From an uncultured Collinsella sp. (lineage in GTDB: Bacteria > Actinomycetota > Coriobacteriia > Coriobacteriales > Coriobacteriaceae): a stretch of 64,000 bases of DNA. Location of the stretch: NCBI GenBank assembly GCA_959606495.1, contig CAUHJB010000004.1, positions 12,813 through 76,812 of the forward strand, read 5' to 3'. Both the position numbers and the translations under genes were made by a program. Each line of letters begins with the position of its first letter. Position 1 is the stretch's first letter. Positions 4,177 through 57,654 of the stretch are shown one piece after another. The notes under the pieces were generated by a model that ran no database searches, was not told the DNA's origin, and worked only from the letters and a program-made list of their open reading frames with translations.

Positions 4177-4254
<78 letters not shown>

Positions 4255-4453: not shown

Positions 4454-4612
4454 AAATTGCACTGTGGGCCGCATCTGATGCATTTCGCTCCAAGCGCGGC
4501 ATTCAGTGGATATCCGATTTACCATTTGGATGTCCTGCGGTCATTTAGCGTCTCGACACAAGCTCGGCCCCGGAGCTCGTTCGAGCTGTTCGTATTCCTT
4601 GAAAGGGGAAAA

Positions 4613-5098
4613 ATGGACATATCGAGGAAGACTGATTACGCCCTTCGTATGTTGGCGATGCTTGCCGAGGATCCGGAGCGTTTGCTTTCTGTTCGCACCG
4701 CTGCCGAAGAGGTCAATGTCCCGTATTCGTTCGCCCGCTCGATTCAGCACGGTTTGGTCCAGGCCGGTATTGTGGAGAGCCTGCGTGGCGTCCACGGTGG
4801 CATGCGTCTCAAGGTCAGTCCGGACGACGTTACCATTCGTCAGGTCGTCGAGGCCGTTCAGGGCCCTATGGTTATGAATGATTGCACCGCACCCGATGGC
4901 GACTGTGCGCGCATGGGCACGTGCTGCTATCATCCCCTGTGGGCCGGAGCTCAAGCATTGATGCGCGACTACCTCGATTCCGTTTCGCTCGGCGACATCG
5001 TCGCTCACCGCCAGTTCCCGGCCGTCGATCCCAAGTTCGCCGACCGCGAAGCGTTTCCCGAGTACGCCACCTGTGCGTATACATGCCGGGAGGAATAG
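4613..5098 (+). CDS. Rrf2 family transcriptional regulator (Cys-rich, probable Fe-S)
   Basis: MDISRKTDYALRMLAMLA wHTH N-terminus; C-terminal cysteines CTAPDGDCARMGTCCYH; AAGGGGA SD before the ATG at 4613. Confidence 0.85.
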   Translation: MDISRKTDYALRMLAMLAEDPERLLSVRTAAEEVNVPYSFARSIQHGLVQAGIVESLRGVHGGMRLKVSPDDVTIRQVVEAVQGPMVMNDCTAPDGDCARMGTCCYHPLWAGAQALMRDYLDSVSLGDIVAHRQFPAVDPKFADREAFPEYATCAYTCREE

Positions 5099-5119
5099 CG
5101 CCGCATAAGGAGCATAGAT

Positions 5120-6025
5120 ATGATTCAGGACCCCTTTCGTTCGATGATTCGTTCGGAAGGGGTCCTGCGTTATCGCGACCTTCCGTGGCGCCGCACACGC
5201 GATCCGTACATCATTTGGCTTTCTGAGGTCATGCTGCAGCAAACGCAGGTGCCGCGCGTGGAGGCGCGCATGCCGGTGTGGCTCGATCGTTTTCCGACTG
5301 TGCAGGCGCTTGCCCAGGCCGCGCCTTCCGATGTTTTGGACGCTTGGCAGGGGATGGGCTACAACCGACGCGCTCTGGCGCTCCACAAGGCCGCCCAGCG
5401 CGTTATAGAGGACTGGGACGGGGAGTTTCCGCACGAGACACGTGACTTGGTCGCTCTTCCTGGTATTGGCCCGGCAACGGCGCAGGGTATCCGGTCGTTT
5501 GCATTTGATCTTCCGGGCGTGTATCTGGAGACCAACGTGCGCACGGTCTTTCTGCATCACTTCTTTCCCGATGTGCCGGCTGTTTCCGATCGCGAACTGG
5601 TGCCGCTGATTCAGGCGGCCTGTCCGGCGGCCCCCGGTGCGGCGCCCGACGAGATCGCTCCCTTCGCCGTGCCTCAAGACGATGCCGACACGCCGCGCGC
5701 GTGGTATTACGCGTTGCTGGATTACGGCGCGTATCTTAAAAAGATGCTGCCCAACCCGTCCAGGCGCTCGGCGGGCTATAGCCGTCAATCAAAGTTTGAG
5801 GGCTCGCGTCGCCAAAAGCGCGCGCATATCGTGCGAATGTTGCTGGCAGCGCGCGATGGCCAGCCGGCGGGGATTACGCTTGCTGACGCCGTGGGGGGCG
5901 TTAACGAGATGGAGACGGCGGCCGGTCGCGGGCCGGTCGAGTGCGAGCTTGTCGCGGGCATTCTAGCCGATCTGGAGCGTGAGGGCTTTTGCCGCTCCGA
6001 GGACGATCGTTGGCTGAGTGTGTAG
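5120..6025 (+). CDS. MutY-family HhH-GPD DNA glycosylase, divergent (no Fe-S cysteine motif)
   Basis: LSEVMLQQTQV and HhH LPGIGPATAQ motifs, AAGGAG SD. No CX6CX2CX5C motif, and ETNV where canonical MutY has DGNV. Confidence 0.7.
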   Translation: MIQDPFRSMIRSEGVLRYRDLPWRRTRDPYIIWLSEVMLQQTQVPRVEARMPVWLDRFPTVQALAQAAPSDVLDAWQGMGYNRRALALHKAAQRVIEDWDGEFPHETRDLVALPGIGPATAQGIRSFAFDLPGVYLETNVRTVFLHHFFPDVPAVSDRELVPLIQAACPAAPGAAPDEIAPFAVPQDDADTPRAWYYALLDYGAYLKKMLPNPSRRSAGYSRQSKFEGSRRQKRAHIVRMLLAARDGQPAGITLADAVGGVNEMETAAGRGPVECELVAGILADLEREGFCRSEDDRWLSV

Positions 6026-6123
6026 CCCGCTCGAATTTTAAGGTTTAGATTTTCGGCAGGGGGTACCATAAAATAAGGCCGCTCAAAGCCTATGGGCGGC
6101 ATGTATTGAAGGGAAGTACACCT

Positions 6124-6663
6124 ATGGATTTTGAGAGCTCCCAAACCAAGAAGAACCTTGAGACCGCTTTTGCCGGTGAGTCCCAGGCGCACACCAAGTA
6201 TCGCTACTATGCATCTAAGGCCAAAAAGGACGGCTACGTTCAGATCTCGAATATCTTTGCCGAGACGGCGGGTAACGAGTCCGAGCACGCCAAGCTGTGG
6301 TTTAAGTATCTGCACGATGGCGCCGTTCCCGGCACTCTGGATAACCTGCGCGATGCCGCCGCGGGCGAGAACTACGAGTGGACCGAGATGTACGACGAGT
6401 TTGCCAAGACCGCCGATGAGGAGGGCTTTGCCGAGATCGCCGCGAAGTTCCGCGGCGTCGCTGCTGTCGAGAAGGCTCACGAGGAGCGCTACAACAAGCT
6501 CGTCGAGCGCATTGAGTCGGGCGAGGTGTTTGAGCGCGAGGGCGTAAAGGTGTGGAAGTGCCTGAACTGCGGACATCTGCACGTTGGTGCCGAGGCACCT
6601 GAGGTGTGCCCGGTGTGTAACCACCCCAAGGCGTACTTTGAGGAGCAGGTGGTGAACTACTAG
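6124..6663 (+). CDS. rbr: Rubrerythrin
   Basis: Ferritin-like ExxH pairs ([23 protein letters not shown]) plus a C-terminal rubredoxin-type CLNCGH...CPVCNHP. Confidence 0.9.
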
Positions 6664-6683
6664 CGCTTGGCGCTGGCTGCTGC

Positions 6684-6771
6684 GGAGCGCAGGGCGGGGA
6701 AATACCTTTCCCTCTCGCTCACGGCTTCGCAGAGTCGCGCGAGGCAAAGGTATTTCCCCGCCTTGCGCTCC
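6684..6771. repeat. 26-bp-stem long hairpin downstream of rbr
   Basis: GGAGCGCAGGGCGGGGAAATACCTTT (6684-6709) pairs with AAAGGTATTTCCCCGCCTTGCGCTCC (6746-6771), one G-T. Confidence 0.8.
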
Positions 6772-28840: not shown

Positions 28841-29005
28841 GTTGCGCGGTTTTCCAAACCGCGCAACGGCTCGACGCTACAAGCCCGCCAGAGCGGCAAT
28901 CTGCCTTTCAACTTCGGCGGCATGACCAGAAGATCAATGTCGCCTTGTTTCAAGGCACCTTGCTCGCTCTGGCGGGCTTTCGCTGACATTGCCAAAACAT
29001 CGACT
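28841..29005 (+). repeat. Family C structured element, copy C1 (candidate ncRNA)
   Basis: Shares conserved blocks and three covarying helices with 51471-51640. Confidence 0.7.
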
Positions 29006-29013
29006 ACCCGCAG

Positions 29014-29109
29014 AATGAGCGTGGATAATCTCCCGTTTTTGGCTCGGTTATGACCTCAAAGCGGGAGATTATCCACGCTCATCCGGAAAGTGTCCAAATA
29101 TCCACGCTC
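29014..29109. repeat. Family A repeat array A1
   Basis: GAGCGTGGATAATCTCCCG (29017-29035), its inverted copy (29062-29080), and a further inverted unit GTCCAAATATCCACGCTC (29092-29109). Confidence 0.85.
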
Positions 29110-35591: not shown

Positions 35592-35706
35592 GAGCGTGGA
35601 AATCCGGACACACGAGCGTGGATAATCGGACGTTTGCAACGTGAGCGTGGATAATCTCCCGTTTTTGGCTCACAAGGGGTCTCAAAGCGGGAGATTTTCC
35701 ACGCTC
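35592..35706. repeat. Family A repeat array A2
   Basis: Direct units at 35592, 35614, and 35643, and an inverted unit at 35688-35706. Confidence 0.85.
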
Positions 35707-36003
35707 ATTTTTTCTGCAGCTGCCGTACCGTCGGCATCATCACACGTTGAGTACATGCGGACTACATCGCAAACTAGGTAGTTTCGAGCCACAGCATATT
35801 TTCTTTCAATGAAGTCGGTGGCTTTTGAGGCTCAAAATGTGGAGACAGGGACCTCTCGACAACCGTTCTACCTGCAGATATAAGCCATTGGCCTAAAACA
35901 TCCAAAACCGTCAGGCATTTGGTCAGCATCTGGACAGCATTTGGTCAGACTTCGCATGAAACCGTCTGGTACGTTTGCGCCGTTCCAAGAGTTTGGGGGC
36001 GAC

Positions 36004-36966
36004 ATGGCAAACATGACGGCGAATCAAAGACTCACAAGTCACATTGAAGCATGCGAGCAGCAGATGAGCTGCGTGTACGCGCGCACGACGGCGGAGGCAA
36101 AGCAGATTGAACGGCGGGTGGCGGCGGGAAGTCTCAAGGTGGTCATGCCGGGACTGTATGCGCATCCGGAATACTGGTCCGAGCTCAAGTTTCGGCAGCG
36201 TTATCTGCATCGGGTGCGGGCGCTTGCGCAAAAGCACCCCGACTGGACGTTTTGCTCCTATACGGCGGCCGTTGTCTATGGCCTTTCGGTTTCGCATGCC
36301 AATTTGACGCACATCCATATCGCCGCGATGCCGGCGCAATCGACGACGCCAGGCTCTCAAGTCGTTCGCCATCGGTATGCTTATCGGACACGGGCCAGCG
36401 AGATGGATATTGCCGTGACCGATATCGATCAAACGATTGCGGATTGCCTGGTCGATGCATCGTTTGTCGAAGGGCTGATCATTGCGGACTCGGCGCTCCA
36501 TGAGCAGCTTTTGTCGAATGAGCATCTTGTTGAGACGGTCGACAGGCTTGGCTTGAATCGTCGCGGTGTTGTGACGGCGCGCAGGGTCGCGCGGTGTGCC
36601 GACGGCTTGTCGGAAAACGGCGGCGAGTCCAAGGCGCGTGCGCTGATGATCGAGCACGGCTGGCAGGTTCCGGAGCTGCAAGTTGAGCTGTTCGATCCGG
36701 TTGAGCCGGGAAGGCCGTATCGCGTTGACTATTTGTGGCGCGTGGGTGACCGGTTGATTATTGGGGAGTTCGACGGATTCGTTAAAAGCGAGAAGGCGGC
36801 GGAGGAGGGCAAGCTCGCAAAGGCGCAATTTGACGAGCGCCAGCGTGAGTCGAGGCTTTCGATGCTCGATAACTGCAAGATTGTGCGCTTGTGCTGGGAT
36901 GACCTAAGGGATCCGACAAAGCTCGATCGTAAGCTCAAGGTTGCCGGCGTGCCGCGTGCCTGCTGA
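36004..36966 (+). CDS. Hypothetical protein with a C-terminal Vsr/DUF559-like endonuclease-fold region
   Basis: Lower-GC ORF. C-terminal pattern RVDYLW..IIGEFDGFVKSEK is typical of DUF559-like proteins. Confidence 0.55.
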   Translation: MANMTANQRLTSHIEACEQQMSCVYARTTAEAKQIERRVAAGSLKVVMPGLYAHPEYWSELKFRQRYLHRVRALAQKHPDWTFCSYTAAVVYGLSVSHANLTHIHIAAMPAQSTTPGSQVVRHRYAYRTRASEMDIAVTDIDQTIADCLVDASFVEGLIIADSALHEQLLSNEHLVETVDRLGLNRRGVVTARRVARCADGLSENGGESKARALMIEHGWQVPELQVELFDPVEPGRPYRVDYLWRVGDRLIIGEFDGFVKSEKAAEEGKLAKAQFDERQRESRLSMLDNCKIVRLCWDDLRDPTKLDRKLKVAGVPRAC

Positions 36967-36993
36967 GACGGTTACAGGGTGTTAGGCTGCACG

Positions 36994-37159
36994 AGCGTGG
37001 AAATCCGGACGGATGAGCGTGGGAATTTAGACGTGATTTGGTTGAGCGTGGATTTTCGGACACACGAGCGTGGATTATCGGACGTTTGAATAATGAGCGT
37101 GGATAATCTCCCGTTTTTTGCCCCCGAACAGGCCCAAAGTGGGAAATTGTCCACGCTCA
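36994..37159. repeat. Family A repeat array A3 (largest)
   Basis: Five direct units starting at 36994, 37016, 37045, 37067, and 37096 (spacing 22/29/22/29), plus an inverted unit at 37141-37159. Confidence 0.9.
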
Positions 37160-37911: not shown

Positions 37912-38241
37912 CTATAACGCCGCGGCGATTGCTTCGGTCACAAACTTATTGAGTGACTCGCCCTTTTTTGCCGCCGCCAGTGCTGCCTGCTTGTGAAGCT
38001 CGGAGCCTGTTCTCACATTGAACGAGCCCTTAAAAGCCCGCTCTGGTTCCTTGCCCTTTTCGGCACAAAACTCAAGGTAATCGTCGACGGCGTCGTGGAA
38101 GCATTGCTCCACTTCTTCAGCCGTGGAGCCTTCAAATACGATTGCATCCCTAATGCCGGCGACCATACCTGTTAGTACATGCTGCTCGGCATCGAACTCG
38201 ACTGGGGCGAAATAGCCCTTGTATGCCAAAACGTTACTCAT
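37912..38241 (-). CDS. hicB: HicB family antitoxin
   Basis: YKGYFAPVEFDAE..L.G...I.D...FEG.T..E N-terminal HicB fold, C-terminal RHH-like FNVRTGSELHKQAALAA. The start overlaps the hicA stop (ATGAGTAA). Confidence 0.85.
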   Translation of the reverse strand: MSNVLAYKGYFAPVEFDAEQHVLTGMVAGIRDAIVFEGSTAEEVEQCFHDAVDDYLEFCAEKGKEPERAFKGSFNVRTGSELHKQAALAAAKKGESLNKFVTEAIAAAL

Positions 38242-38497
38242 GACTGCCTCCGACATCCTGCAGAAATCGAACGATGTTTCGAATTGTCTCCGCTGTCAAT
38301 TCGTCAGATGGATGAGGCACGTGCATCACGAACATCCTGCCATCTGAGGGCCTGTAGAAGCGAACGCGCGATCCGGATGTCTTGCCTTTGCTGTCCATTT
38401 CAAAGCCATATGAGGCCATGACTTTTAAAAAATCGGCATACCGATACGTCGAAGGGCAGCTAAACAGTTGGGCGATGAGTTTATCGGCTCGAGTCAT
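38234..38497 (-). CDS. hicA: HicA family mRNA interferase toxin
   Basis: 87 aa. FLKVMASYGFEMDSKGKTSGSRVRFYR..MHVPHP is typical of YcfA/HicA. Confidence 0.85.
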   Translation of the reverse strand: MTRADKLIAQLFSCPSTYRYADFLKVMASYGFEMDSKGKTSGSRVRFYRPSDGRMFVMHVPHPSDELTAETIRNIVRFLQDVGGSHE

Positions 38498-41772: not shown

Positions 41773-41915
41773 GAGCGTGGATTTTCGGACACACGAGCGT
41801 GGAAATTCGGACGCCTGCCAAATGACAGTGGATTTTCGGACGAAATCGGCCGCCAAAAGCCCAAAAACCGTCCAAATATCCACTCTCGATATCCGACCGT
41901 TCATAATCCACGCTC
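41773..41915. repeat. Family A repeat array A4
   Basis: Direct units at 41773, 41796, and 41824, and inverted units at 41870-41887 and 41899-41915. Confidence 0.85.
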
Positions 41916-41951: not shown

Positions 41952-42164
41952 TCTAATACGAGAGATAACAGATAGATGAGAGATAAATATGAGAGATAAC
42001 AATGCTGCAAAGAGACGGGCAACCATGGTATTGTCTCAATATAGATTGTTTTACCAGCAACAACATGTTTAAATGAAACAGATGACAGACATCTTATCTC
42101 TCATCTTTCACTCATATCTAATACGAGAGATAACAGAAAGATGAGAGATAATTACAAGAGATAA
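41952..42164. repeat. Iteron-like GAGAGATAA array including a 35-bp direct repeat
   Basis: TCTAATACGAGAGATAACAGA(T/A)AGATGAGAGATAA at 41952-41986 and 42117-42151. Perfect 9-mers at 41960, 41978, 41991, 42125, and 42143, one inverted at 42094, and a variant at 42156. Confidence 0.85.
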
Positions 42165-42220: not shown

Positions 42221-43693
42221 GTGCAGATGAACGAAAACGAGCTGGCCGGTTTGCTCGAGTCTTTAAAGCGCATGGGTTCGGATGACTTTAGCGTCGAAGT
42301 AAAGGAGAGCGCCACGACGCTTTCCCGCGACGTATGGGAAACGGTCAGCGCTTTCGCAAACACCGCCGGCGGCATCATCGTACTCGGAGTGAGCGAGCGC
42401 GCGGGTTTTGTCCCAGTTGCAAACTTTGAGACCGAGAAAGTGCTCAACCAATTCGTGGCGGGCATGGGCGATGCCGGCGGTCGCGGAAAGCTGGCCAATC
42501 CGCCCAAATACACCATTGAGCGCGTGGAGCTCCAGGGCACCGTGGTTCTAGTCATCGCGATTGAGGAGCTTGACCCGTCGAGCAAGCCTTGCTATGTCAT
42601 AGAGCGGGGCGCTCAAGGTGGCAGCTACAAACGCATCGATGATAAAGATGTCCCGCTTTCGTCGACCGAGGTTTTGGCACTGTCGTCATATGAACGGACG
42701 AGTCCTAGCGATCGCGATGTGGCGCCCGGCACGAGTGTGGGCGATCTCGACGAGTCGCTGGTCGACCGCACGATAGAGCGTGCCTATTCGTTGACGCCTC
42801 GAGCGATGCGCGGTGCGGCGGACAAGAAGACAAAGATGGAGCGTCTGAATTTCCTCGACTTCCAGGGCAATGTTACCAAGGCCGGCCTCCTTACCGCGGG
42901 CATTTACCCTCAGCAGTTCTATCCCAAGCTCTTCATTGATGTGGCTGTCCACGTGGGAACTCAAAAGGGAGCTGCGGGGCCACTAAGGTTTATGGACCGC
43001 ACAGTCTGCGAGGGCACCCTAGGCGAGATGATTTCGGATGCCGTCGCAGCTGTCGCCAAAAACCTGCGCCGCATCTCGACCGTCCAAGGCGTCTCGCGTA
43101 TCGACTCGCTGGAGATCCCCGAGGAGGTCCTGCGCGAGGCAGTCGCCAACGCGGTTATCCACAGGGAATACGGGGATCGGTTCTGTGGACAATCGATTGC
43201 CGTCGACGTCTTTGACGATCGTGTCGAGGTGACGAATCCTGGCGGCCTTTACGGGGGAAAGACTCGCGAGAACTTGTTTGACGGCAGCTCCCGATGCCGT
43301 AACGCGACGCTCGTGAAACTCATGTCGATTGTCCCGCTTCCGGATGGCGCAGGTTCGCCGGCTGAGGGCAATGGCTCGGGCATCCCGATGATGATCGATG
43401 CCATGCGCGCGCATGGTCTGGCCGAGCCCCTGTTCTGCCCGGGGTTCGATCGGTTCAAGGTCGTACTTTGCCGTTCAAAGATCGAGCCGGTCGATCATGG
43501 CGGGGGCTTAATTGTGACGGCACTCAAACACTACGGCGAGCTGGGGACGCGTGAGCTGGCAAAACGCACGGGGCTTACAATTTCCCAGGTTAGGTCGCGC
43601 GTCAACGCGCTCATTGCTCAAGGCGAGCTTGAGCCCACGGCGCCGTCGACAAGCCGCAACCGCAAATATCGACTGTCAGAGCGCGTGGAATAA
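42221..43693 (+). CDS. Schlafen/AlbA_2 domain + HATPase_c_4 + C-terminal wHTH protein
   Basis: AlbA_2-like N-terminus (VEVKES...VSAFANTAGGIIVLGV), VLREAVANAVIHREY ATPase-like box, and a C-terminal wHTH (TRELAKRTGLTISQVRSRVNALI). An ATG at 42227 is also possible. Confidence 0.75.
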   Translation: MQMNENELAGLLESLKRMGSDDFSVEVKESATTLSRDVWETVSAFANTAGGIIVLGVSERAGFVPVANFETEKVLNQFVAGMGDAGGRGKLANPPKYTIERVELQGTVVLVIAIEELDPSSKPCYVIERGAQGGSYKRIDDKDVPLSSTEVLALSSYERTSPSDRDVAPGTSVGDLDESLVDRTIERAYSLTPRAMRGAADKKTKMERLNFLDFQGNVTKAGLLTAGIYPQQFYPKLFIDVAVHVGTQKGAAGPLRFMDRTVCEGTLGEMISDAVAAVAKNLRRISTVQGVSRIDSLEIPEEVLREAVANAVIHREYGDRFCGQSIAVDVFDDRVEVTNPGGLYGGKTRENLFDGSSRCRNATLVKLMSIVPLPDGAGSPAEGNGSGIPMMIDAMRAHGLAEPLFCPGFDRFKVVLCRSKIEPVDHGGGLIVTALKHYGELGTRELAKRTGLTISQVRSRVNALIAQGELEPTAPSTSRNRKYRLSERVE

Positions 43694-43793
43694 ATGCGTT
43701 AGTGGACGAGGCGACCCAATAATCGACCCTCGATTGGCGCCCACTAAGGTAAAGCGGTTGTTGCCCAGTCGACGGTGATGCTAAAGACTCGGC

Positions 43794-44285
43794 TTACGCC
43801 GGCATGGCCCCGAACCCGTCCATCAAGAACAGCCTAAGAACCAGCTTGATGACATTTCCCGGTTTGACTTCAGCCGTGCCAAAGACGCTGCGCTCGGCGA
43901 GCTCGCTGCAGTATGCGTAGATATCGCGGATAAGGTCCGCGCCCGAAAGCGTAAACATGTAGCCTGCGTCCGAAAGCGCATTGGGCGCGGCGGGCAACTT
44001 GGCCATGTGACAAAAGGTCAACAGGTCGGGCGCCATAGCGTCTTGGTAGCCAAGATGGCCGCCGTCTTCTTGTGCGGCGAGTTCCAGCTGGCGTACTCGA
44101 TCCAGCGCCGCTGCCAGCACAAAGCTCGGTGTGGGCGCATTGACGTCTTCCGTGTTCGCCACGAGTTTGCCCGCCGCCTGTGTGACAAGCCAGGCGACCT
44201 CGCGCTGGCAACGCACGGCCTTGCGCGTAACCGGCTTGATGGACGAAGAAGAAACGCTCCCCTTAGGCGGATTCGAAGCAGCCAT
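43794..44285 (-). CDS. Hypothetical protein (163 aa)
   Basis: Plausible helical composition. GGGAGGG SD 5 nt before the ATG. Competing frames are Arg-rich junk. Confidence 0.5.
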   Translation of the reverse strand: MAASNPPKGSVSSSSIKPVTRKAVRCQREVAWLVTQAAGKLVANTEDVNAPTPSFVLAAALDRVRQLELAAQEDGGHLGYQDAMAPDLLTFCHMAKLPAAPNALSDAGYMFTLSGADLIRDIYAYCSELAERSVFGTAEVKPGNVIKLVLRLFLMDGFGAMPA

Positions 44286-44296
44286 AAGACCCTCCC

Positions 44297-44866
44297 ATGA
44301 ACAATCCGGCCCAACAAGCCCGGATGAAACACGTGCTACATCAGTATACAGGGGAGTGGGGTAGCGGGGTACAAGCGCGCCAGCGGCAAACCGAGAGCAT
44401 CAACAATGTGCCTCCGCTCTATTTGGACGATGGTACGTGGGTCATTAAGTACTCGGTTCAAGCGCCGGGTACCGTTGGTTTTCGAGACCAGAATTACAAC
44501 CGTAAAATGCTCAACTGCATGGAATGTGACGTCCCAGTCGGAGTCATATTTGCAACCGAGGTGGGCTATAAGGTGCTCGGCCTTGCGTTTGTTGAGCGGT
44601 TCGAGCCCGAAAACGGATGGTTTGTTCTGCACGGTCCTGTTCATAAAGGCGGACCGGACCCTCGTTTTGCGCCCGACATGAGTTATCTGAAGCACATACC
44701 CGTCGATATTGAGTTTGCCGGACAGGGTGCGACCGACGATGAAATTTGGTTTTGGCGGTCTTTTAAGATCGTGTTGTTTGATCGGATCGCGTGGCGATGC
44801 AATCTCGCGCCCGCCCGCCGGTGCATGCTCTTCCTGATTTGCATAGCGAGAGGGGAGCGTGTATGA
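44297..44866 (+). CDS. Hypothetical protein, possible SRA/PUA-like beta-barrel domain
   Basis: NRKMLNCMECDVPVGVIFA...YKVLGLAFVERFEPENGWFVLHG resembles the SRA-YDG pattern. No SD (leaderless?). The odd Arg/Cys/Leu C-terminal tail may be degenerate. Confidence 0.45.
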   Translation: MNNPAQQARMKHVLHQYTGEWGSGVQARQRQTESINNVPPLYLDDGTWVIKYSVQAPGTVGFRDQNYNRKMLNCMECDVPVGVIFATEVGYKVLGLAFVERFEPENGWFVLHGPVHKGGPDPRFAPDMSYLKHIPVDIEFAGQGATDDEIWFWRSFKIVLFDRIAWRCNLAPARRCMLFLICIARGERV

Positions 44867-45147
44867 GCTGGCGAGGCGATATTGCGATGGGGAAGTACGG
44901 AAAACTGCCGTGTGCTCTTATCGACAACAATATGTTTCCGAGCGTAGAGGTTGATTGCGGGTCGTTTGTCGTCGCCTGCCCTTGCTGCGGCTCGCAAATA
45001 CCGTGTCTCGACATTCGGTTCATCGATGCGCGCGACAGGCTCAGCGACGAAGTGAGAAAACGGACAGGCGTTCATATGCCGGTGTATCCGGAGAAATGCC
45101 CTGTTTGTGGCCTCGATATCGTGTACGACGCCGGCGACGAGGGATAG
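44863..45147 (+). CDS. Small zinc-ribbon protein (94 aa)
   Basis: GAGAGGGGAG SD, ATGA overlap with the upstream ORF, and CPCCG...CPVCG cysteine pairs. Confidence 0.55.
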   Translation: MSWRGDIAMGKYGKLPCALIDNNMFPSVEVDCGSFVVACPCCGSQIPCLDIRFIDARDRLSDEVRKRTGVHMPVYPEKCPVCGLDIVYDAGDEG

Positions 45148-45185
45148 GTGATGCGGAGGAGCTGACTGTGAAGGCCTCTCCGTCC

Positions 45186-45872
45186 CTACAAATAAATCCC
45201 CTCACCGAGCTGCTTGTGGAACTCGGCGTGATGGTCGCGTGCCCAGGTAAAGAGCGCCTGGTCAAAGTCGGTGCGCGCGGCCGGGGCGCCAAAGACGCCG
45301 GCAACTTCGACGCGTACAAACTCCAGTGCCGGCAGCTTGTTGATGGCAGTGAGGGCAAACGGGGACGAGGGCTCCTCGAACAGATAGCGGCTGCCTTGCA
45401 GCGCGTTGCAACTGGTGCACGTGTTGCCGAGCGACGGGGCTTTGGAGGCTCGCGTGCCTACGGGCTTGTAGCCGCAGCGCTTAGAAAGATAGTCGCGGAT
45501 CTCGCCCGGCACGCAGCCAAGAGCGGGCACGATGGCGAGTGCGTTGGCGTTGGCCGTGTCGATGGCAATGTGCCCGGCTTCGTTGGGCGCGTGCGCGATG
45601 GCGATGCCCTTGTCGTCATCGGTTCGGTAGGGAATGCCGAAGGCCGCGACCGAGGTCTCTTTGTGACACTTCCAGCACTCGCGCTTGCCCAGTACTAGAT
45701 ATATATACGGCGCTGAGGGGTCGGATCGGTCAACACCGGGCAGCCACTCGGCAAAGGGCTCGGGGTTGACGCCGCTGGGTACATACCAGATCTTCTTGGT
45801 CCGGTCCCATTTGGCGCCCAGCGCCTTGGCTTCTTCTTTGTGCGAAAAGGGGACATCGAGCTCGGTGCGCAT
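45186..45872 (-). CDS. DUF5710-like N-terminal domain protein with a Cys-rich C-terminal region
   Basis: LDVPFSHKEEAKALGAKWDRTKKIWYVP motif; CWKC and CTSC pairs. AAGGAG SD before the ATG at 45872. Confidence 0.6.
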   Translation of the reverse strand: MRTELDVPFSHKEEAKALGAKWDRTKKIWYVPSGVNPEPFAEWLPGVDRSDPSAPYIYLVLGKRECWKCHKETSVAAFGIPYRTDDDKGIAIAHAPNEAGHIAIDTANANALAIVPALGCVPGEIRDYLSKRCGYKPVGTRASKAPSLGNTCTSCNALQGSRYLFEEPSSPFALTAINKLPALEFVRVEVAGVFGAPAARTDFDQALFTWARDHHAEFHKQLGEGIYL

Positions 45873-46161
45873 GGCGGCTCCTTGGTGCTGCAGGTGCGAG
45901 TGGCTCAAGGATACCGCAGGGCGCAGGCATCGCGGCGTTTTGTTGAGAAGTTGCGGCGCGGACTGCTTGGTTACGCCGTTAGATAAATTGGCAAGTAGAT
46001 GGTCGGCTTTTGACCAGTTGGGCGGTTGGAGCAGCTTGCGGCGCAGTTTTCTGCCTGGCTATTGTTGCTGTTGGGGTATTGAATTTGTTTGGCAGCCATT
46101 CGTCAGGTGAATTGATGTTACGTTGCGATGACGGTTGGAGCTGCCAACGGATTTGGCGACA

Positions 46162-46200
46162 TAAAACAAAACAGCCCAGAGGACATAGCCTCTGAGCTGC
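46162..46200 (-). terminator. Rho-independent terminator of tRNA-Val
   Basis: On the minus strand: CAGCTCAGAGG-CTATGT-CCTCTGGGCTG then TTTTGTTTT. Confidence 0.75.
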
Positions 46201-46207
46201 GAACATT

Positions 46208-46282
46208 TGGTGGGCGTTAGAAGATTTGAACTTCTGACCTCTTCCGTGTCAGGGAAGCGCTCTCCCCCTGAGCTAAACGCCC
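46208..46282 (-). tRNA. tRNA-Val (anticodon GAC), CCA encoded
   Basis: Hand-folded. Acceptor GGGCGTT/AACGCCC; anticodon stem CTTCC/GGAAG with loop CTGACAC; T-loop TTCAAAT. Confidence 0.9.
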
Positions 46283-53752: not shown

Positions 53753-53836
53753 TTACCGAACCGGGCCGCGTTTTCGCAACGCCAAGCGGCGCCAGCCGCC
53801 CCGGCAAGCGGATGCGCGAGAGACGAAAGGGAAGAC

Positions 53837-54913
53837 ATGAGTCTGATTGATGATCTGGTCAAACTCGAGGAAGAGGCCAAGGAGCTCGTCGCAGGCGCCG
53901 ATGACGCCGCCAAGCTCGAGGCTGCGCGTGTTGAGCTGCTCGGTCGCAAGGGTCGTATCACCGGCTTGATGCGCATGATGGGCAAGCTCGCCCCCGAGGA
54001 TCGTCCCGTGATGGGCAAGCGCGCCAACGAGATGCGCCAGCTGATCGAGGGCATGCTCGACGAGCGAAACACCGAGATGAAGGCCGCCGCCCTCAAGCGC
54101 GCACTCGAGCACGACGCCGTCGACATCACGCTGCCGGGCATCCGTCCGCAGATCGGCCACCAGCACCTGATCAAGCAGATCATCGAGGAGGCCGAGGACA
54201 TCTTCTGCGGCATCGGCTACACCGTCGAGTCCGGTCCCATGGTCGACACCTCCTACTACAACTTCACCGCGCTCAACGCTCCCATGGATCACCCGAGCCG
54301 CTCGGCCCGCGATACCTTCTACGTGGTCGACAACAACCCCGGCAGCGTCGCGCACCCCGAGGCTCACGCCCACGGCGAGTCCGACGTGCTGCTGCGCACC
54401 CAGACTTCGGGCGTGCAGATCCACACTATGGAGTCGCAGAAGCCGCCCATCTACATGATCTGCCCGGGCACCGTCTACCGTCCCGACACGGCCGACGCCT
54501 GCCACCTTCCGCAGTTCAACCAGATCGAGGGCCTGGTCGTCGACGAGGGCATCACCTTTGGCGACCTGAAGGGCACGCTCGACTACTTTGTTAAGTGCAT
54601 GTTTGGCGAGGATCGCAAGACGCGTTACCGCCCGCACTTCTTCCCCTTCACCGAGCCCAGCTGCGAGGTGGACGTGAGCTGCCACGTGTGCGGCGGCAAG
54701 GGCTGCAACTTCTGCAAGCACAGCGGCTGGATCGAGATCTTGGGCTGCGGCATGGTCGACCCCAACGTCCTGATCAACTGCGGCATCGACCCCGAGAAGT
54801 ACACTGGCTTCGCCTTTGGTATTGGCGCCGAGCGCGTCGCGGCCCTGCGCTACGACCTGCCGGACCTCAGAACGCTCATGACGGGCGATATGCGCTTCTT
54901 GAACCAATTTTAA
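53837..54913 (+). CDS. pheS: Phenylalanine--tRNA ligase alpha subunit
   Basis: Class II motifs (HPSRSARDTFY, FFPFTEPS, GFAFGIGAERVA). AAAGGGAAG SD before the ATG at 53837. Confidence 0.93.
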   Translation: MSLIDDLVKLEEEAKELVAGADDAAKLEAARVELLGRKGRITGLMRMMGKLAPEDRPVMGKRANEMRQLIEGMLDERNTEMKAAALKRALEHDAVDITLPGIRPQIGHQHLIKQIIEEAEDIFCGIGYTVESGPMVDTSYYNFTALNAPMDHPSRSARDTFYVVDNNPGSVAHPEAHAHGESDVLLRTQTSGVQIHTMESQKPPIYMICPGTVYRPDTADACHLPQFNQIEGLVVDEGITFGDLKGTLDYFVKCMFGEDRKTRYRPHFFPFTEPSCEVDVSCHVCGGKGCNFCKHSGWIEILGCGMVDPNVLINCGIDPEKYTGFAFGIGAERVAALRYDLPDLRTLMTGDMRFLNQF

Positions 54914-55093
54914 GTTGACCTGTCCCGGCGGCTTCCCGAGCCACCGCACCTTGCCTTTCAATCGTCGGTTGCGTACCTAAGTACGCGGCCCTCCTCTTTC
55001 AAGGCAATCTGCGGCACCTCGGAAACCCGTCTCCGTAGCTGGAGTTTTCCGTCTGTTTAATGCAGGCGTTACAGATGAAAGGAGACCAGTTAG

Positions 55094-57547
55094 ATGCGCG
55101 TTTCTTACGACTGGCTCAAGACCATGATCGATATTCCGGAGGATCCCAAGACCCTTTCGGACGAATATATCCGTACCGGCACCGAGGTCGAGGCGATCGA
55201 CACCGTGGGCGAGTCCTTCGACCACGTGGTGACCGCCAAGGTGCTCACCAAGACCCCGCACCCCGATAGCGACCACATGTATGTGTGCTCGGTCGACGTG
55301 GGTGACAAGAACCTCGATGCCGACGGCAATCCCGCTCCGCTGCAGATCGTCTGCGGCGCGCAGAACTTCGAGGCCGGCGACCACATCGTCACGGCCATGA
55401 TCGGCGCAGTTCTGCCCGGCGACGTCAAGATCAAGAAGAGCAAGCTTCGCGGCGTCGTGTCCATGGGCATGAACTGTTCCGCACGCGAGCTCGGCCTGGG
55501 CGGCGACCACTCCGGCATTATGATCCTGCCCGAGGATACGCCCTGCGGCATGCCGTTTGCCGAGTATGTGGGCTCGAGCGACACCGTGCTCGACTGCGAG
55601 ATCACGCCCAACCGCCCCGACTGCCTGTCCATGATTGGCATGGCCCGCGAGACCGGTGCCATCTTCGACCGCGATTTCCACGTTGAGCTGCCCGTCATCA
55701 AGGCGGAGACCGGCCGCGCGACCGACGACGAGCTTTCGGTCGAGATTGCCGACGAGGGCCTGTGCGACCGCTATGTCGCCCGCATCGTGCGCAACGTGAA
55801 GGTCGGCCCGTCGCCCGACTGGATGGTCAAGCGCCTCAACGCCCTGGGCGTGCGCCCGCACAACAATATCGTCGACATTACCAACTATGTGATGATGCTC
55901 ACCGGTCAGCCGCTGCACGCCTTTGACCTGGACACCTTTGCCGAGCGCAATGGCCACCGCCGCGTGGTGGTTCGCGCCGCCCAGCAGGATGAGAAGTTCA
56001 CGACGCTCGACGGCGAGGAGCGTACGCTCGACGCCGGCATGGGCCTTATCACCGACGGCGAGCGCCCCGTGGCGCTGGCCGGCGTTATGGGCGGCATGGA
56101 TTCCGAGATCGAGGACGATACCGTCGACGTGATGGTCGAGAGCGCCTGCTTCAACGCCGGTCGCACCTCGCACACCAGCCGTGACCTGTCGCTGATCTCC
56201 GACGCCTCCATTCGCTTTGAGCGCCAGGTCGACGAGACCGGCTGCGTGGATGTCGCCAACGTTACCTGCGCGCTTATCGAGGAGATCGCCGGCGGCGAGG
56301 TCGCCCCCGGCTATGTGGACGTGTTCCCCGCGCCCAAGACCATCGACAGCATTAGGCTGCGCCTGGCCCGCGTGCATGCCATCTGCGGTGCCGACATCGA
56401 GCCCGACTTTATCGAGCGTTCGCTCACCCGTCTGGGCTGCACCGTCGAGCGCGACGGCGAGGACTTTATGGTCACCCCGCCGAGCTTCCGTCCCGACCTG
56501 CCGCGCGAGATCGACCTGATCGAGGAGGTCCTGCGCCTGTGGGGCATGGGCCGCGTGACGGCGACCATCCCGGCTGCCAAGAACCACATCGGCGGCCTGA
56601 CCCGCGAGCAGAAGCTCACCCGTAAGGTCGGCGAGATCCTGCGCGCCTGCGGCCTCAACGAGACCACGACCTTTGGCTTTGCCGCCCCGGGCGACCTGGA
56701 GAAGATTGGCATGTCCACCGAAGGCCGCGGCTGCCCCGTGGTGCTCATGAACCCGCTGGTGGCCGAGCAGACCGAGATGCGCCGCTCGCTGTTGCCAGGC
56801 CTGCTGCAGTCCGTTGCCTATAACGAGGCCCACGGCACGCCCAACGTGCACCTGTACGAGGTCGGCAGCCTGTTCCACGGTCGCGAGAACGCCAGCCTGC
56901 CCAAGGAGACCAAGTCCGTGGCGGGTGTGCTCTCGGGCCAGTGGAGCGAGCAGTCCTGGAACATGAAGTACCGTAAGCTGCGCTTCTTCTTTGGCAAGGG
57001 CATTGTCGAGGAGCTGCTCGCCCAGCTGCGCATCGAGAAGGTTCGCTTCCGTCCCGTCGAGGGCGAGGGCTACGCTTTCTTGCAGCCGGGTCGTGCGGCC
57101 GAGGTTCTGTCCGGCGGAACCGTGCTGGGCTGGGTCGGCGAGATTCACCCCGAGGCGCGCGAGGCGATGGGCATCGATGAGGTCGTCGTTGCCTTTGAGC
57201 TCGACTTGGACAAGCTGATCAAGGGCGCCCGCAACCAGGAGAACTACCGTGAGTTCTCGCAGTACCCGGCCGTTGAGCACGACCTTGCCATTGTGGTTGA
57301 CAACTCCGTGACCTGTGAGGATCTTGAGCGCCGCATTACGAGCGCCGGCGGTAAGTTGCTCGAGGGCGTGCGCCTGTTCGACGTCTACCGCGATCCCATC
57401 CGCATCGGAGCGGGCAAAAAGTCCATGGCCTTTGCGCTTACGTATCGCTCCGACGACCACACGCTTACCAGCGAAGAGGTCGAGAAGGCGCACCAGAAGA
57501 TTGTCACCAAGGTGTGCAAGGGCGTAAACGGCGAAGTCCGCTCGTAA
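55094..57547 (+). CDS. pheT: Phenylalanine--tRNA ligase beta subunit
   Basis: MRVSYDWLK N-terminus, tRNA-binding, B3/4, B5, and FDX-ACB regions; 817 aa. Confidence 0.93.
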   Translation: MRVSYDWLKTMIDIPEDPKTLSDEYIRTGTEVEAIDTVGESFDHVVTAKVLTKTPHPDSDHMYVCSVDVGDKNLDADGNPAPLQIVCGAQNFEAGDHIVTAMIGAVLPGDVKIKKSKLRGVVSMGMNCSARELGLGGDHSGIMILPEDTPCGMPFAEYVGSSDTVLDCEITPNRPDCLSMIGMARETGAIFDRDFHVELPVIKAETGRATDDELSVEIADEGLCDRYVARIVRNVKVGPSPDWMVKRLNALGVRPHNNIVDITNYVMMLTGQPLHAFDLDTFAERNGHRRVVVRAAQQDEKFTTLDGEERTLDAGMGLITDGERPVALAGVMGGMDSEIEDDTVDVMVESACFNAGRTSHTSRDLSLISDASIRFERQVDETGCVDVANVTCALIEEIAGGEVAPGYVDVFPAPKTIDSIRLRLARVHAICGADIEPDFIERSLTRLGCTVERDGEDFMVTPPSFRPDLPREIDLIEEVLRLWGMGRVTATIPAAKNHIGGLTREQKLTRKVGEILRACGLNETTTFGFAAPGDLEKIGMSTEGRGCPVVLMNPLVAEQTEMRRSLLPGLLQSVAYNEAHGTPNVHLYEVGSLFHGRENASLPKETKSVAGVLSGQWSEQSWNMKYRKLRFFFGKGIVEELLAQLRIEKVRFRPVEGEGYAFLQPGRAAEVLSGGTVLGWVGEIHPEAREAMGIDEVVVAFELDLDKLIKGARNQENYREFSQYPAVEHDLAIVVDNSVTCEDLERRITSAGGKLLEGVRLFDVYRDPIRIGAGKKSMAFALTYRSDDHTLTSEEVEKAHQKIVTKVCKGVNGEVRS

Positions 57548-57559
57548 TCTTTGCTGTTC

Positions 57560-57654
57560 GGAACCCGCCCCCTGCGGGGTTTTCACGGCAACGTCCTCGC
57601 CACTTCGCGGCTGCGGGATGTTGCCTTAGAAAACCCCTCTCGGGGGCGGGTTCC
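57560..57654. repeat. 95-nt three-segment imperfect hairpin downstream of pheT
   Basis: GGAACCCGCCCCC/GGGGGCGGGTTCC, GGGGTTTT/AAAACCCC, GGCAACGTCC/GGGATGTTGCC. Confidence 0.75.

Follow-up and report, generated by a model that had tools for sequence, protein, structure and literature searches.

BIMEs in Enterobacteria and BOX elements in Streptococcus pneumoniae are intergenic mosaics of short motifs, which carry a variable number of internal modules between pairing ends and differ among strains; BIMEs interact with the host factors IHF, gyrase and Pol I. REPIN-RAYT systems comprise tens to hundreds of copies dispersed over a genome. To our knowledge, repeats of the REP type and their enzymes have been described mainly from Proteobacteria and a few other phyla, the enzyme always being a HUH tyrosine transposase. 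Theta plasmids such as pSC101 and pPS10 hold iterons together with an inverted-repeat operator, and one protein reads both, the direct copies as monomer and the inverted ones as dimer. AbiEi proteins bind paired repeats cooperatively. REP units are defined as short imperfect palindromes of 20-40 bp that bear a GTAG or CGTC tag (PMC3733652), and RAYTs follow a logic in which a single-copy gene is flanked by its own, clade-specific repeat type (PMC3337134). Actinobacteria are not among the phyla for which the survey in PMC3733652 reports GTAG REPs, and nowhere does its text use the word.

Here we describe repeat arrays, denoted family A, from the actinobacterium Collinsella. The window, i.e., the whole 64-kb stretch of DNA that was analysed, is Collinsella chromosome with ordinary chromosomal genes (recQ, metA, 5-formyl-THF cyclo-ligase, M16 peptidase, LDH, GntR regulators). 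Family A is best explained as a set of modular intergenic repeats that form hairpins, are specific to Collinsella and resemble a REPIN/BIME system. We propose that its units are recognition sites of a protein and that the most likely partner is the product of X341, a gene located between two of the arrays; we give this reading a probability of roughly one half.

Results

Family A arrays in the window

A loose pattern of the family A unit matched the window 18 times against 5.4 expected matches, and none of 100 shuffles reached 18. A weight matrix trained on other genomes only returned 17 strong matches (18-29 bits), all inside four clusters, and 2 weak matches elsewhere; shuffled windows yielded 2.3 weak matches. 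The 64-kb window contains 17 strong 18-bp units plus one partial unit in four intergenic clusters (Table 1) and none elsewhere, and the exact 9-mer occurs 16 times, with 15 occurrences within the four sites. A chance origin of these arrays is excluded. The spacings of 22, 29, 22 and 29 bp in array 3 make up a 51-bp super-period. A preliminary description of this DNA had recognized both the spacing and the super-period, but the true unit starts lie one base earlier than it placed them; the same grammar, which it had reported for three further intergenic sites, was recovered in arrays 1, 2 and 4.

Table 1. Positions of family A arrays and of X341 with its leader boxes in the 64-kb window
Feature	Position	Strand	Architecture or content	Parts and surroundings
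Array 1	29017-29109	-	D-29-H-63-h read on the - strand	D unit 29092-29109; hairpin arms 29062-29080 and 29017-29035; between the GntR/UTRA regulator gene and recQ
Array 2	35592-35706	+	D22D29H63h	Units 35592, 35614, 35643 (+) and 35689-35706 (-); starts 43 bp past the metA stop, ends 297 bp before the X341 start
TTTGGTCAG boxes	35910-35948	+	GTCAGCATTTG x3.5	X341 leader, 60-95 bp upstream of X341
X341	36004-36966	+	320 aa; candidate partner protein	Bracketed by arrays 2 and 3
Array 3	36993-37158	+	D22D29D22D29H63h	Direct units GAGCGTGGA-WWW-TCGGAC starting at 36993, 37015 (degenerate, GAGCGTGGGAATTTAGAC), 37044, 37066 and 37095 (+ strand); inverted unit 37141-37158 (-) faces the last direct unit, 3 positions differing between the two; starts 27 bp past the X341 stop, its end lies 29 bp short of the stop of the convergent 5-formyl-THF cyclo-ligase gene
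Array 4	41773-41915	+	D22D29D63d28d; hairpin of D-type arms, partly degenerate	Divergent spacer between the M16 peptidase gene and the Schlafen/AlbA_2 gene

Folded as single-stranded DNA, three of the four hairpins reach -20 to -28 kcal/mol, with z scores against shuffles between -6.7 and -9.7 (array 1, -9.7 at -28.3 kcal/mol; array 2, -8.5; array 3, -6.7), and the hairpin of array 4 is weak (z -2.3). The genes around the four sites stand in tandem, tandem, convergent and divergent orientation, i.e., without the preference for convergent gene ends that had been considered for these repeats.

Array 1 is adjoined by a very stable hairpin module of about 100 nt at 28881-28985 (aagcccgccagagcg...cgctctggcgggctt; RNA MFE -63 kcal/mol for 28871-29012). 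Of 131 Collinsella loci, 18 contain copies of this module, frequently next to family A arrays. Between array 4 and a gene with Schlafen/AlbA_2, HATPase_c_4 and wHTH domains (42221-43693), six copies of GAGAGATAA (five on the + strand, one on the - strand) lie within longer inverted repeats at 41960-42151 and are possibly the operator of that gene. The region 42221-46282 is a strain-variable island comprising the Schlafen/AlbA_2 gene, two family-less ORFs and a DUF5710 gene and ending in tRNA-Val (46208-46282); in other strains it is replaced by a GntR-mannose PTS operon, or by restriction-modification and MutH-like genes. A HicB antitoxin gene occupies 37912-38256; syntenic strains have HicA and HicB, HicB alone, or neither, and some carry an extra YD-shell/RHS-like gene in this region, before the M16 peptidase gene. 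Two pairs of long ORFs without Pfam family, at 4541-6747 (415 and 320 aa, about 290 bp from tRNA-Asp at 4177-4254) and 53753-57586 (402 and 869 aa), have a lowered third-position G+C (0.62-0.67) and are possibly acquired DNA.

Array grammar and hairpin pairing across genomes

The grammar was derived from about 130 related loci with 176 arrays of at least two units, or 205 clusters when single units are counted. The unit consists of GAGCGTGGA, three A/T bases and either TCGGAC (D) or TCTCCC (H), and an array strings together n direct units and ends in one or, in some cases, two inverted units. In the 176 arrays, direct units follow each other at 22 bp (132 times) or 29 bp (179 times) and at almost no other value, leaving spacers of 4 and 11 bp; for the inverted pair, an outer span of 63 bp was counted 143 times. 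The base element D-29-H-63-h measures 93 bp; its closing hairpin of two inverted units, 26 bp apart, measures 64 nt. Extra direct units come in steps of 51 bp (22+29), and their number differs among strains.

Computed with one consensus per site, conservation amounts to 1.65-1.73 bits/position in the units versus 0.77 in the 11-bp spacer and 0.96 in the loop. The terminal palindrome is indeed conserved across sites, yet it is not the most conserved part that it had been taken for, its 1.65-1.73 bits/position being matched by 1.69 in the direct units. Among 31 distinct hairpins, 93% of the cells are paired and nine pairs have changed on both sides. The covariation score is 0.166 vs 0.061, 0 of 500 shuffles reach 0.166, and slid registers collapse. 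Where both arms became GAGAG/CTCTC, the neighbouring direct unit stays GAGCG; hence the two arms change in step, as expected of a real hairpin or cruciform, and the unpaired direct units would most simply be kept by a sequence reader such as a protein. Between sites, the loop is found in either orientation with respect to the direct unit. A flip-flop of the hairpin was considered and dismissed: no clear flip was found within one orthologous site, and the apparent case in L083 is a reversed locus.

Distribution and strain polymorphism

Scanning species-representative genomes for the unit, we found at least 120 stretches, and nearly all of the matches listed belong to Collinsella or unnamed Coriobacteriaceae; the other taxa among them are represented by a few single chance matches. 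Clustering of the flanks gave at least 12 distinct chromosomal contexts genus-wide, including positions downstream of pdxT, beside thrE, inside a cluster of tRNA genes that precedes tuf, and in the interval from an RpiR regulator gene to pyrE. The units are thus not restricted to the window and recur in many Collinsella genomes. In a 0.9-Mb record of C. aerofaciens, family A occupies only 2 places.

The sites vary among strains. Between X341 and the cyclo-ligase gene there are 1, 2 or 3 of the 51-bp super-units, depending on the strain. Array 1 is present in the window and in L003 and is absent or a stub in other strains, the stub of three strains representing a CGTGG microhomology deletion. 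The architecture of array 4 differs between strains, and some family A arrays have been lost without replacement in certain strains. The GntR-recQ spacer is a strain-shuffled mosaic of other repeat modules, and this shuffling together with microhomology loss is comparable to the behaviour of BIMEs. The strain-specific mosaic has at least 4 modules; in L001-L010 (e.g., L004 4453-4826), the spacer holds a second palindromic family, TAGTCRTTGGGGACGTTCTT...AAGAACGTCCCCAATGACTA, also as direct copies, which has 76 unit matches in 48 loci and none in the window.

Looking at the genes next to the arrays, we found a SoFic-type Fic gene (PADLOC E 2e-106) bracketed by family A, an XRE-type gene bracketed at the RpiR-pyrE site in other strains, and a Schlafen/AlbA_2 gene bracketed in L028; a like gene adjoins array 4 in the window. 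Family A therefore often borders strain-variable single genes of defence type. Such bracketing cuts both ways, as it could provide portable homology for the exchange of cassettes or could mirror general accessory-gene surroundings.

X341, the gene between arrays 2 and 3

X341 matches no Pfam or NCBIfam family. Residues 3-153 match the AbiEi models of PADLOC (E 5.7e-8), and the best PDB match of an AlphaFold model built on 65 homologues (pLDDT 92.9) is Rv2827c (1zel; Foldseek probability 0.97), which has an AbiEi-type fold. The C-terminal part is matched by PD-(D/E)xK nucleases (XisH, OkrAI, the R2 endonuclease domain, AddAB, Bax1 and TnsA); since all Foldseek E-values are >1e-3, the nuclease assignment denotes a fold class only. 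Invariant residues of the family are D162, E208, S209, R212, Q226, D242, E255, G258 and R281. On these models, X341 is predicted to combine an AbiEi-like winged helix at the N terminus with a PD-(D/E)xK nuclease-like domain at the C terminus. The preliminary description had stated that the window contains no gene for a dedicated protein of the repeats. This is probably wrong: X341 lies between arrays 2 and 3, has AbiEi-type and nuclease-like domains, and possesses homologues that are bracketed by repeats.

The X341 family comprises 2,434 clusters at 50% identity (E<=1e-30). Within 1.15 Mb of array-bearing loci X341 is its sole member, and it is a single-copy gene at one fixed locus across many Collinsella species. 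The TTTGGTCAG boxes in its leader are shared with the homologues in L135 and L137, where they likewise lie upstream; more distant homologues lack them. They are a possible operator of X341 itself; an operator of the whole family was rejected, as the boxes are common to the closer homologues only.

Repeats around X341 homologues

An exact-protein look-up of MetA, which led to human gut metagenome contigs and an NCBI assembly, provided the syntenic comparison set. The order metA-array-X341-array-cyclo-ligase is found in seven of ten strains with identical MetA; in the other three (L002, L003 and L006), metA and the cyclo-ligase gene are 24-43 bp apart without any array. No allele with an array but without X341 was found at the metA site among about 40 species-level loci. 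Array, X341 and array are present or absent as one block. In L003 and L006, arrays at other sites persist though X341 is missing at the metA locus. GGCGGCG is a possible target-site duplication of the metA insertion, neither convincing nor robust.

Ten further loci carry family members of 34-58% identity. The metA site of L135 holds a 58%-identical homologue between arrays that are built of another unit, GAGGGGGCCAAAAGTCCC, and have 28/63/28 geometry; aligned in register, this unit and the family A unit GAGCGTGGATAATCTCCC are identical at 11 of 18 positions. Altogether, five loci (L135, L137, L167, L168 and L170) have one and the same lineage-specific hairpin family upstream and downstream of the X341 homologue. 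Flanking arrays of lower identity occur in L141 and L142 with periods of 91 and 52/104 bp, whereas among the 11 loci flanking repeats were weak in L139 and not found in L166 and L169. A uniform BLAST test detected flank-to-flank similarity for 6 of 11 X341 family members versus 1 of 17 non-adjacent genes (Fisher p=0.007); adjacent genes of these loci showed it in 3 of 18 cases. L167 and L168 also contain other repeat families, which do not flank the homologue. Homologues reside at different loci in different lineages, and Bifidobacterium has one as well (P0105).

The L135-type unit is also dispersed away from genes of the X341 family. In gut metagenome contigs (L143-L164, e.g., L147 2774-5470), L135-type arrays with 28/63/28 geometry bracket a Peptidase_C69 gene. 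As family A brackets SoFic on the same contig as L135-type arrays, the two repeat types coexist in one genome. Further unrelated repeat families were noticed in other Coriobacteriia (L167 6590-6791; L168 633-735 and 6760-6862), among them an array GCCAC...CAGTCAGATGTTAACGG with a 41-42-bp period and a perfect palindrome with 45-46-bp arms that occurs twice, 6 kb apart.

Comparison with known element classes

At gathering score, Rfam 15 recovered two tRNAs only from the window; at E<=10, the arrays gave sub-threshold matches to generic hairpin (miRNA) models only. Neither among 34 of the roughly 50 candidate ORFs of the window, which were searched against Pfam (the other 17 or so lie mainly at 12.4-26.8 kb and 57.9-64 kb), nor beside the arrays did we find a transposase or a RAYT/IS200-like gene, for which a search had been advised. 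No IS matching family A was found, and its units are part of no IS, so they are not fragments of a known terminal repeat. In IMG/VR, the hairpin arm had 3 single chance matches in coding DNA and the direct unit none, and the only plasmid match is a mislabelled 0.9-Mb Collinsella record; phage and plasmid origins were rejected. Literature searches found nothing on intergenic repeats in Collinsella, on the 9-mer, or on AbiEi combined with DUF559.

CRISPR arrays have repeats of 23-50 bp and unique spacers of similar length, usually with cas genes. As the preliminary description had argued from the short spacers, family A is not CRISPR: spacers measure 4 and 11 bp, arrays end in an inverted copy, and no cas genes were found among the scanned ORFs of the window. 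The attC sites of integrons are imperfect palindromes that carry R''/R' core sites (RYYYAAC...GTTRRRY), bracket cassettes and are served by the tyrosine recombinase IntI. The arms of family A end in GAGCG...CGCTC and lack the GTTRRRY core, and no integrase was found among the scanned ORFs of the window or in the loci; attC and CALIN were rejected. Plasmid iterons adjoin a rep gene, an A+T-rich region and DnaA boxes at one origin; they were dismissed in view of many chromosomal sites between housekeeping genes and because no rep gene was found. T-runs behind the hairpin are confined to the metA site, one other site and part of the X341/cyclo-ligase site, and a terminator scan was not enriched over shuffles; intrinsic terminators, which are G+C-rich hairpins with a trailing T-run, were rejected. 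Reading D plus H as a promoter gives TGGACA-17-GATAAT at site 1 only and is inconsistent across sites.

Discussion

Several features of family A and X341 recall REPIN-RAYT systems (PMC3337134, PMC3733652): a pair of inverted units with a variable spacer forms a hairpin, copies are dispersed between genes, units are conserved while the spacer drifts, and single-copy X341 is flanked by its own repeat type, which differs by gene clade. However, the unit GAGCGTGGAWWWTCGGAC lacks both self-complementarity and a GTAG or CGTC end, further direct units join it at a fixed spacing of 22/29 bp, copies apparently number roughly ten and not hundreds, the host is an actinobacterium, and X341 is AbiEi-like plus PD-(D/E)xK-like and not HUH-Y1, with no Pfam match to Y1_Tnp. 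Family A/X341 is not a member of the REPIN-RAYT family, as its unit is no tagged palindrome and its protein no HUH-Y1 transposase (PMC3733652). The REP/BIME analogy drawn earlier holds for a multi-site, intergenic and strain-variable element among shuffled modules, but not in the strict sense of a REP with palindromic unit and tag. With BIMEs and BOX, family A shares the modular mosaic, the variable internal module, stem-loop ends, intergenic position and strain polymorphism; the sequences are unrelated, and family A differs by its strict helical-scale spacing and by a candidate dedicated protein.

Like plasmid iterons, family A places direct repeats of about 18-22 bp at 22-bp spacing beside an inverted pair that shares their core, but it occurs at many chromosomal sites, without a rep gene or an A+T-rich unwinding region, and its inverted units are 26 bp apart instead of adjacent. 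As in IS200/IS605, a gene is bracketed by subterminal hairpins of the same orientation and hairpin-only copies exist elsewhere; in contrast, Y1 TnpA and TnpB are missing, the ends are arrays of variable number, and the gene is single-copy at a fixed locus. AbiEi of type IV toxin-antitoxin systems is approached by the N-terminal domain of X341, which matches AbiEi models and the structure of Rv2827c. X341 has no AbiEii toxin partner, though, its C-terminal domain is nuclease-like, and the repeats flank the gene on either side and recur far from it instead of being confined to the promoter.

For the function of X341 and family A, we infer the following. The 18-bp unit would be the recognition site of a sequence-specific protein; two inverted units with an outer span of 63 bp form the 64-nt hairpin or cruciform, and one direct unit 29 bp upstream completes the 93-bp base element. 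The 51-bp steps in which direct units come and go may reflect slippage or unequal exchange. The AbiEi-type winged helix of X341 would bind the units, its PD-(D/E)xK (Vsr/DUF559-like) domain might nick or cut at them, and such cutting could let the elements be copied or recombined. Near-identical arrays may thereby act as portable homology around strain-variable genes of defence type (X341, SoFic, Schlafen/AlbA_2). The apparently low copy number, far below that of classical REPINs, counts against the link to X341, as do the three of 11 homologue loci with weak or no flanking repeats, the persistence of arrays in L003 and L006, the Foldseek E-values of the nuclease part and the doubtful target duplication at the metA site. 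Tentatively, one can go further and regard X341 as representing a large, unnamed AbiEi-like winged-helix plus PD-(D/E)xK family of dedicated partners of lineage-specific hairpin arrays; this would be a second, non-HUH replicator or recombination system of REPIN-RAYT type, and in gut Coriobacteriia its arrays would be the handles by which single-gene defence cassettes are exchanged. We hold this extension possible rather than probable.

Because several repeat families occur in many spacers, the association with X341 could in part express a general liking of the repeats for accessory-gene surroundings. Pursued to its end, this would make family A orphan REP/BIME-like repeats, selfish or neutral and without any tie to X341, spread by another enzyme or by recombination and slippage alone and piling up in permissive spacers of accessory genes. 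Such a scenario would fit the brackets around SoFic, XRE-type and Schlafen/AlbA_2 genes, the adjoining housekeeping genes (pdxT, thrE, tuf/tRNA), the unrelated repeat families in the same spacers and the decay of arrays via microhomology deletion instead of precise excision, and REPs of the CGTC type have been reported without a dedicated transposase (PMC3733652). Still, we regard it as rather unlikely, given that flank-to-flank repeats are enriched around X341 homologues relative to other genes of the same loci (p=0.007), that the additional repeat families of L167 and L168 do not flank the homologue, that the metA site has no array-only allele, and that the geometry is kept while the unit sequence changes together with the protein. 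A classical mobile element, in which array-X341-array is autonomous, the arrays are its ends and solo arrays are miniature non-autonomous derivatives, appears improbable. X341 is fixed as a single copy at one locus in many Collinsella species, the ends of the arrays are undefined and their unit number varies, a clear target duplication is missing, a solo array corresponds to one end and not to two fused ends, and no known transposase fold was found; these points stand against the all-or-none block with empty sites of 24-43 bp, the differing loci of homologues by lineage and the same-orientation hairpins at both ends, as in IS200/IS605, which the element would explain.

Conserved units, variable positions occupied by A/T only and fixed spacing would also suit cis-acting binding-site arrays of the host for a chromosomal protein, i.e., a nucleoid or insulator factor or DnaA. 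The DnaA box consensus is TTATCCACA / TTWTNCACA. The reverse complement of the hairpin arm, which reads TTATCCACG, equals 8 of 9 positions of the E. coli box, and the variant GAGTGTGGAAAATC reads TTTTCCACA, a perfect relaxed DnaA box; the direct units, however, agree with the box at no more than 6-7 of 9 positions, a 9-bp box does not cover the most conserved bases (GAG, TCGGAC), and the unit of the sister lineage differs and has no DnaA-like core. With arrays that vary among strains and are sometimes lost without replacement, a host factor is very improbable. Least credible to us are RNA-level elements, whether terminators, mRNA 3' stabilisers or a small RNA encoded by the arrays. T5-6 runs do follow arrays 2 and 3, both just past stop codons, the hairpins are very stable, and REPs play such roles in other bacteria (PMC3733652). 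Yet a T-run follows the hairpin at a minority of sites, the terminator scan was no richer than shuffles, unpaired direct units are as conserved as the arms, site 4 lies in a divergent promoter region, and Rfam gave no match.

Returning to units as protein recognition sites with X341 as partner, family A and X341 may constitute a new partner pair resembling REP repeats and their transposase, since X341 is bracketed by arrays and its relatives elsewhere lie between their own repeat versions. An abundant actinobacterium of the human gut would then combine unusually strict repeat spacing with a candidate partner of a quite different protein class. The strain-variable number of units could be of use as a marker for typing. 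Should the link prove real, it would give a testable function to thousands of "hypothetical" AbiEi-like nuclease genes, add a second, independent case of co-evolution between a gene and its repeats, and suggest a mechanism by which single-gene phage-defence cassettes are swapped between Collinsella strains.
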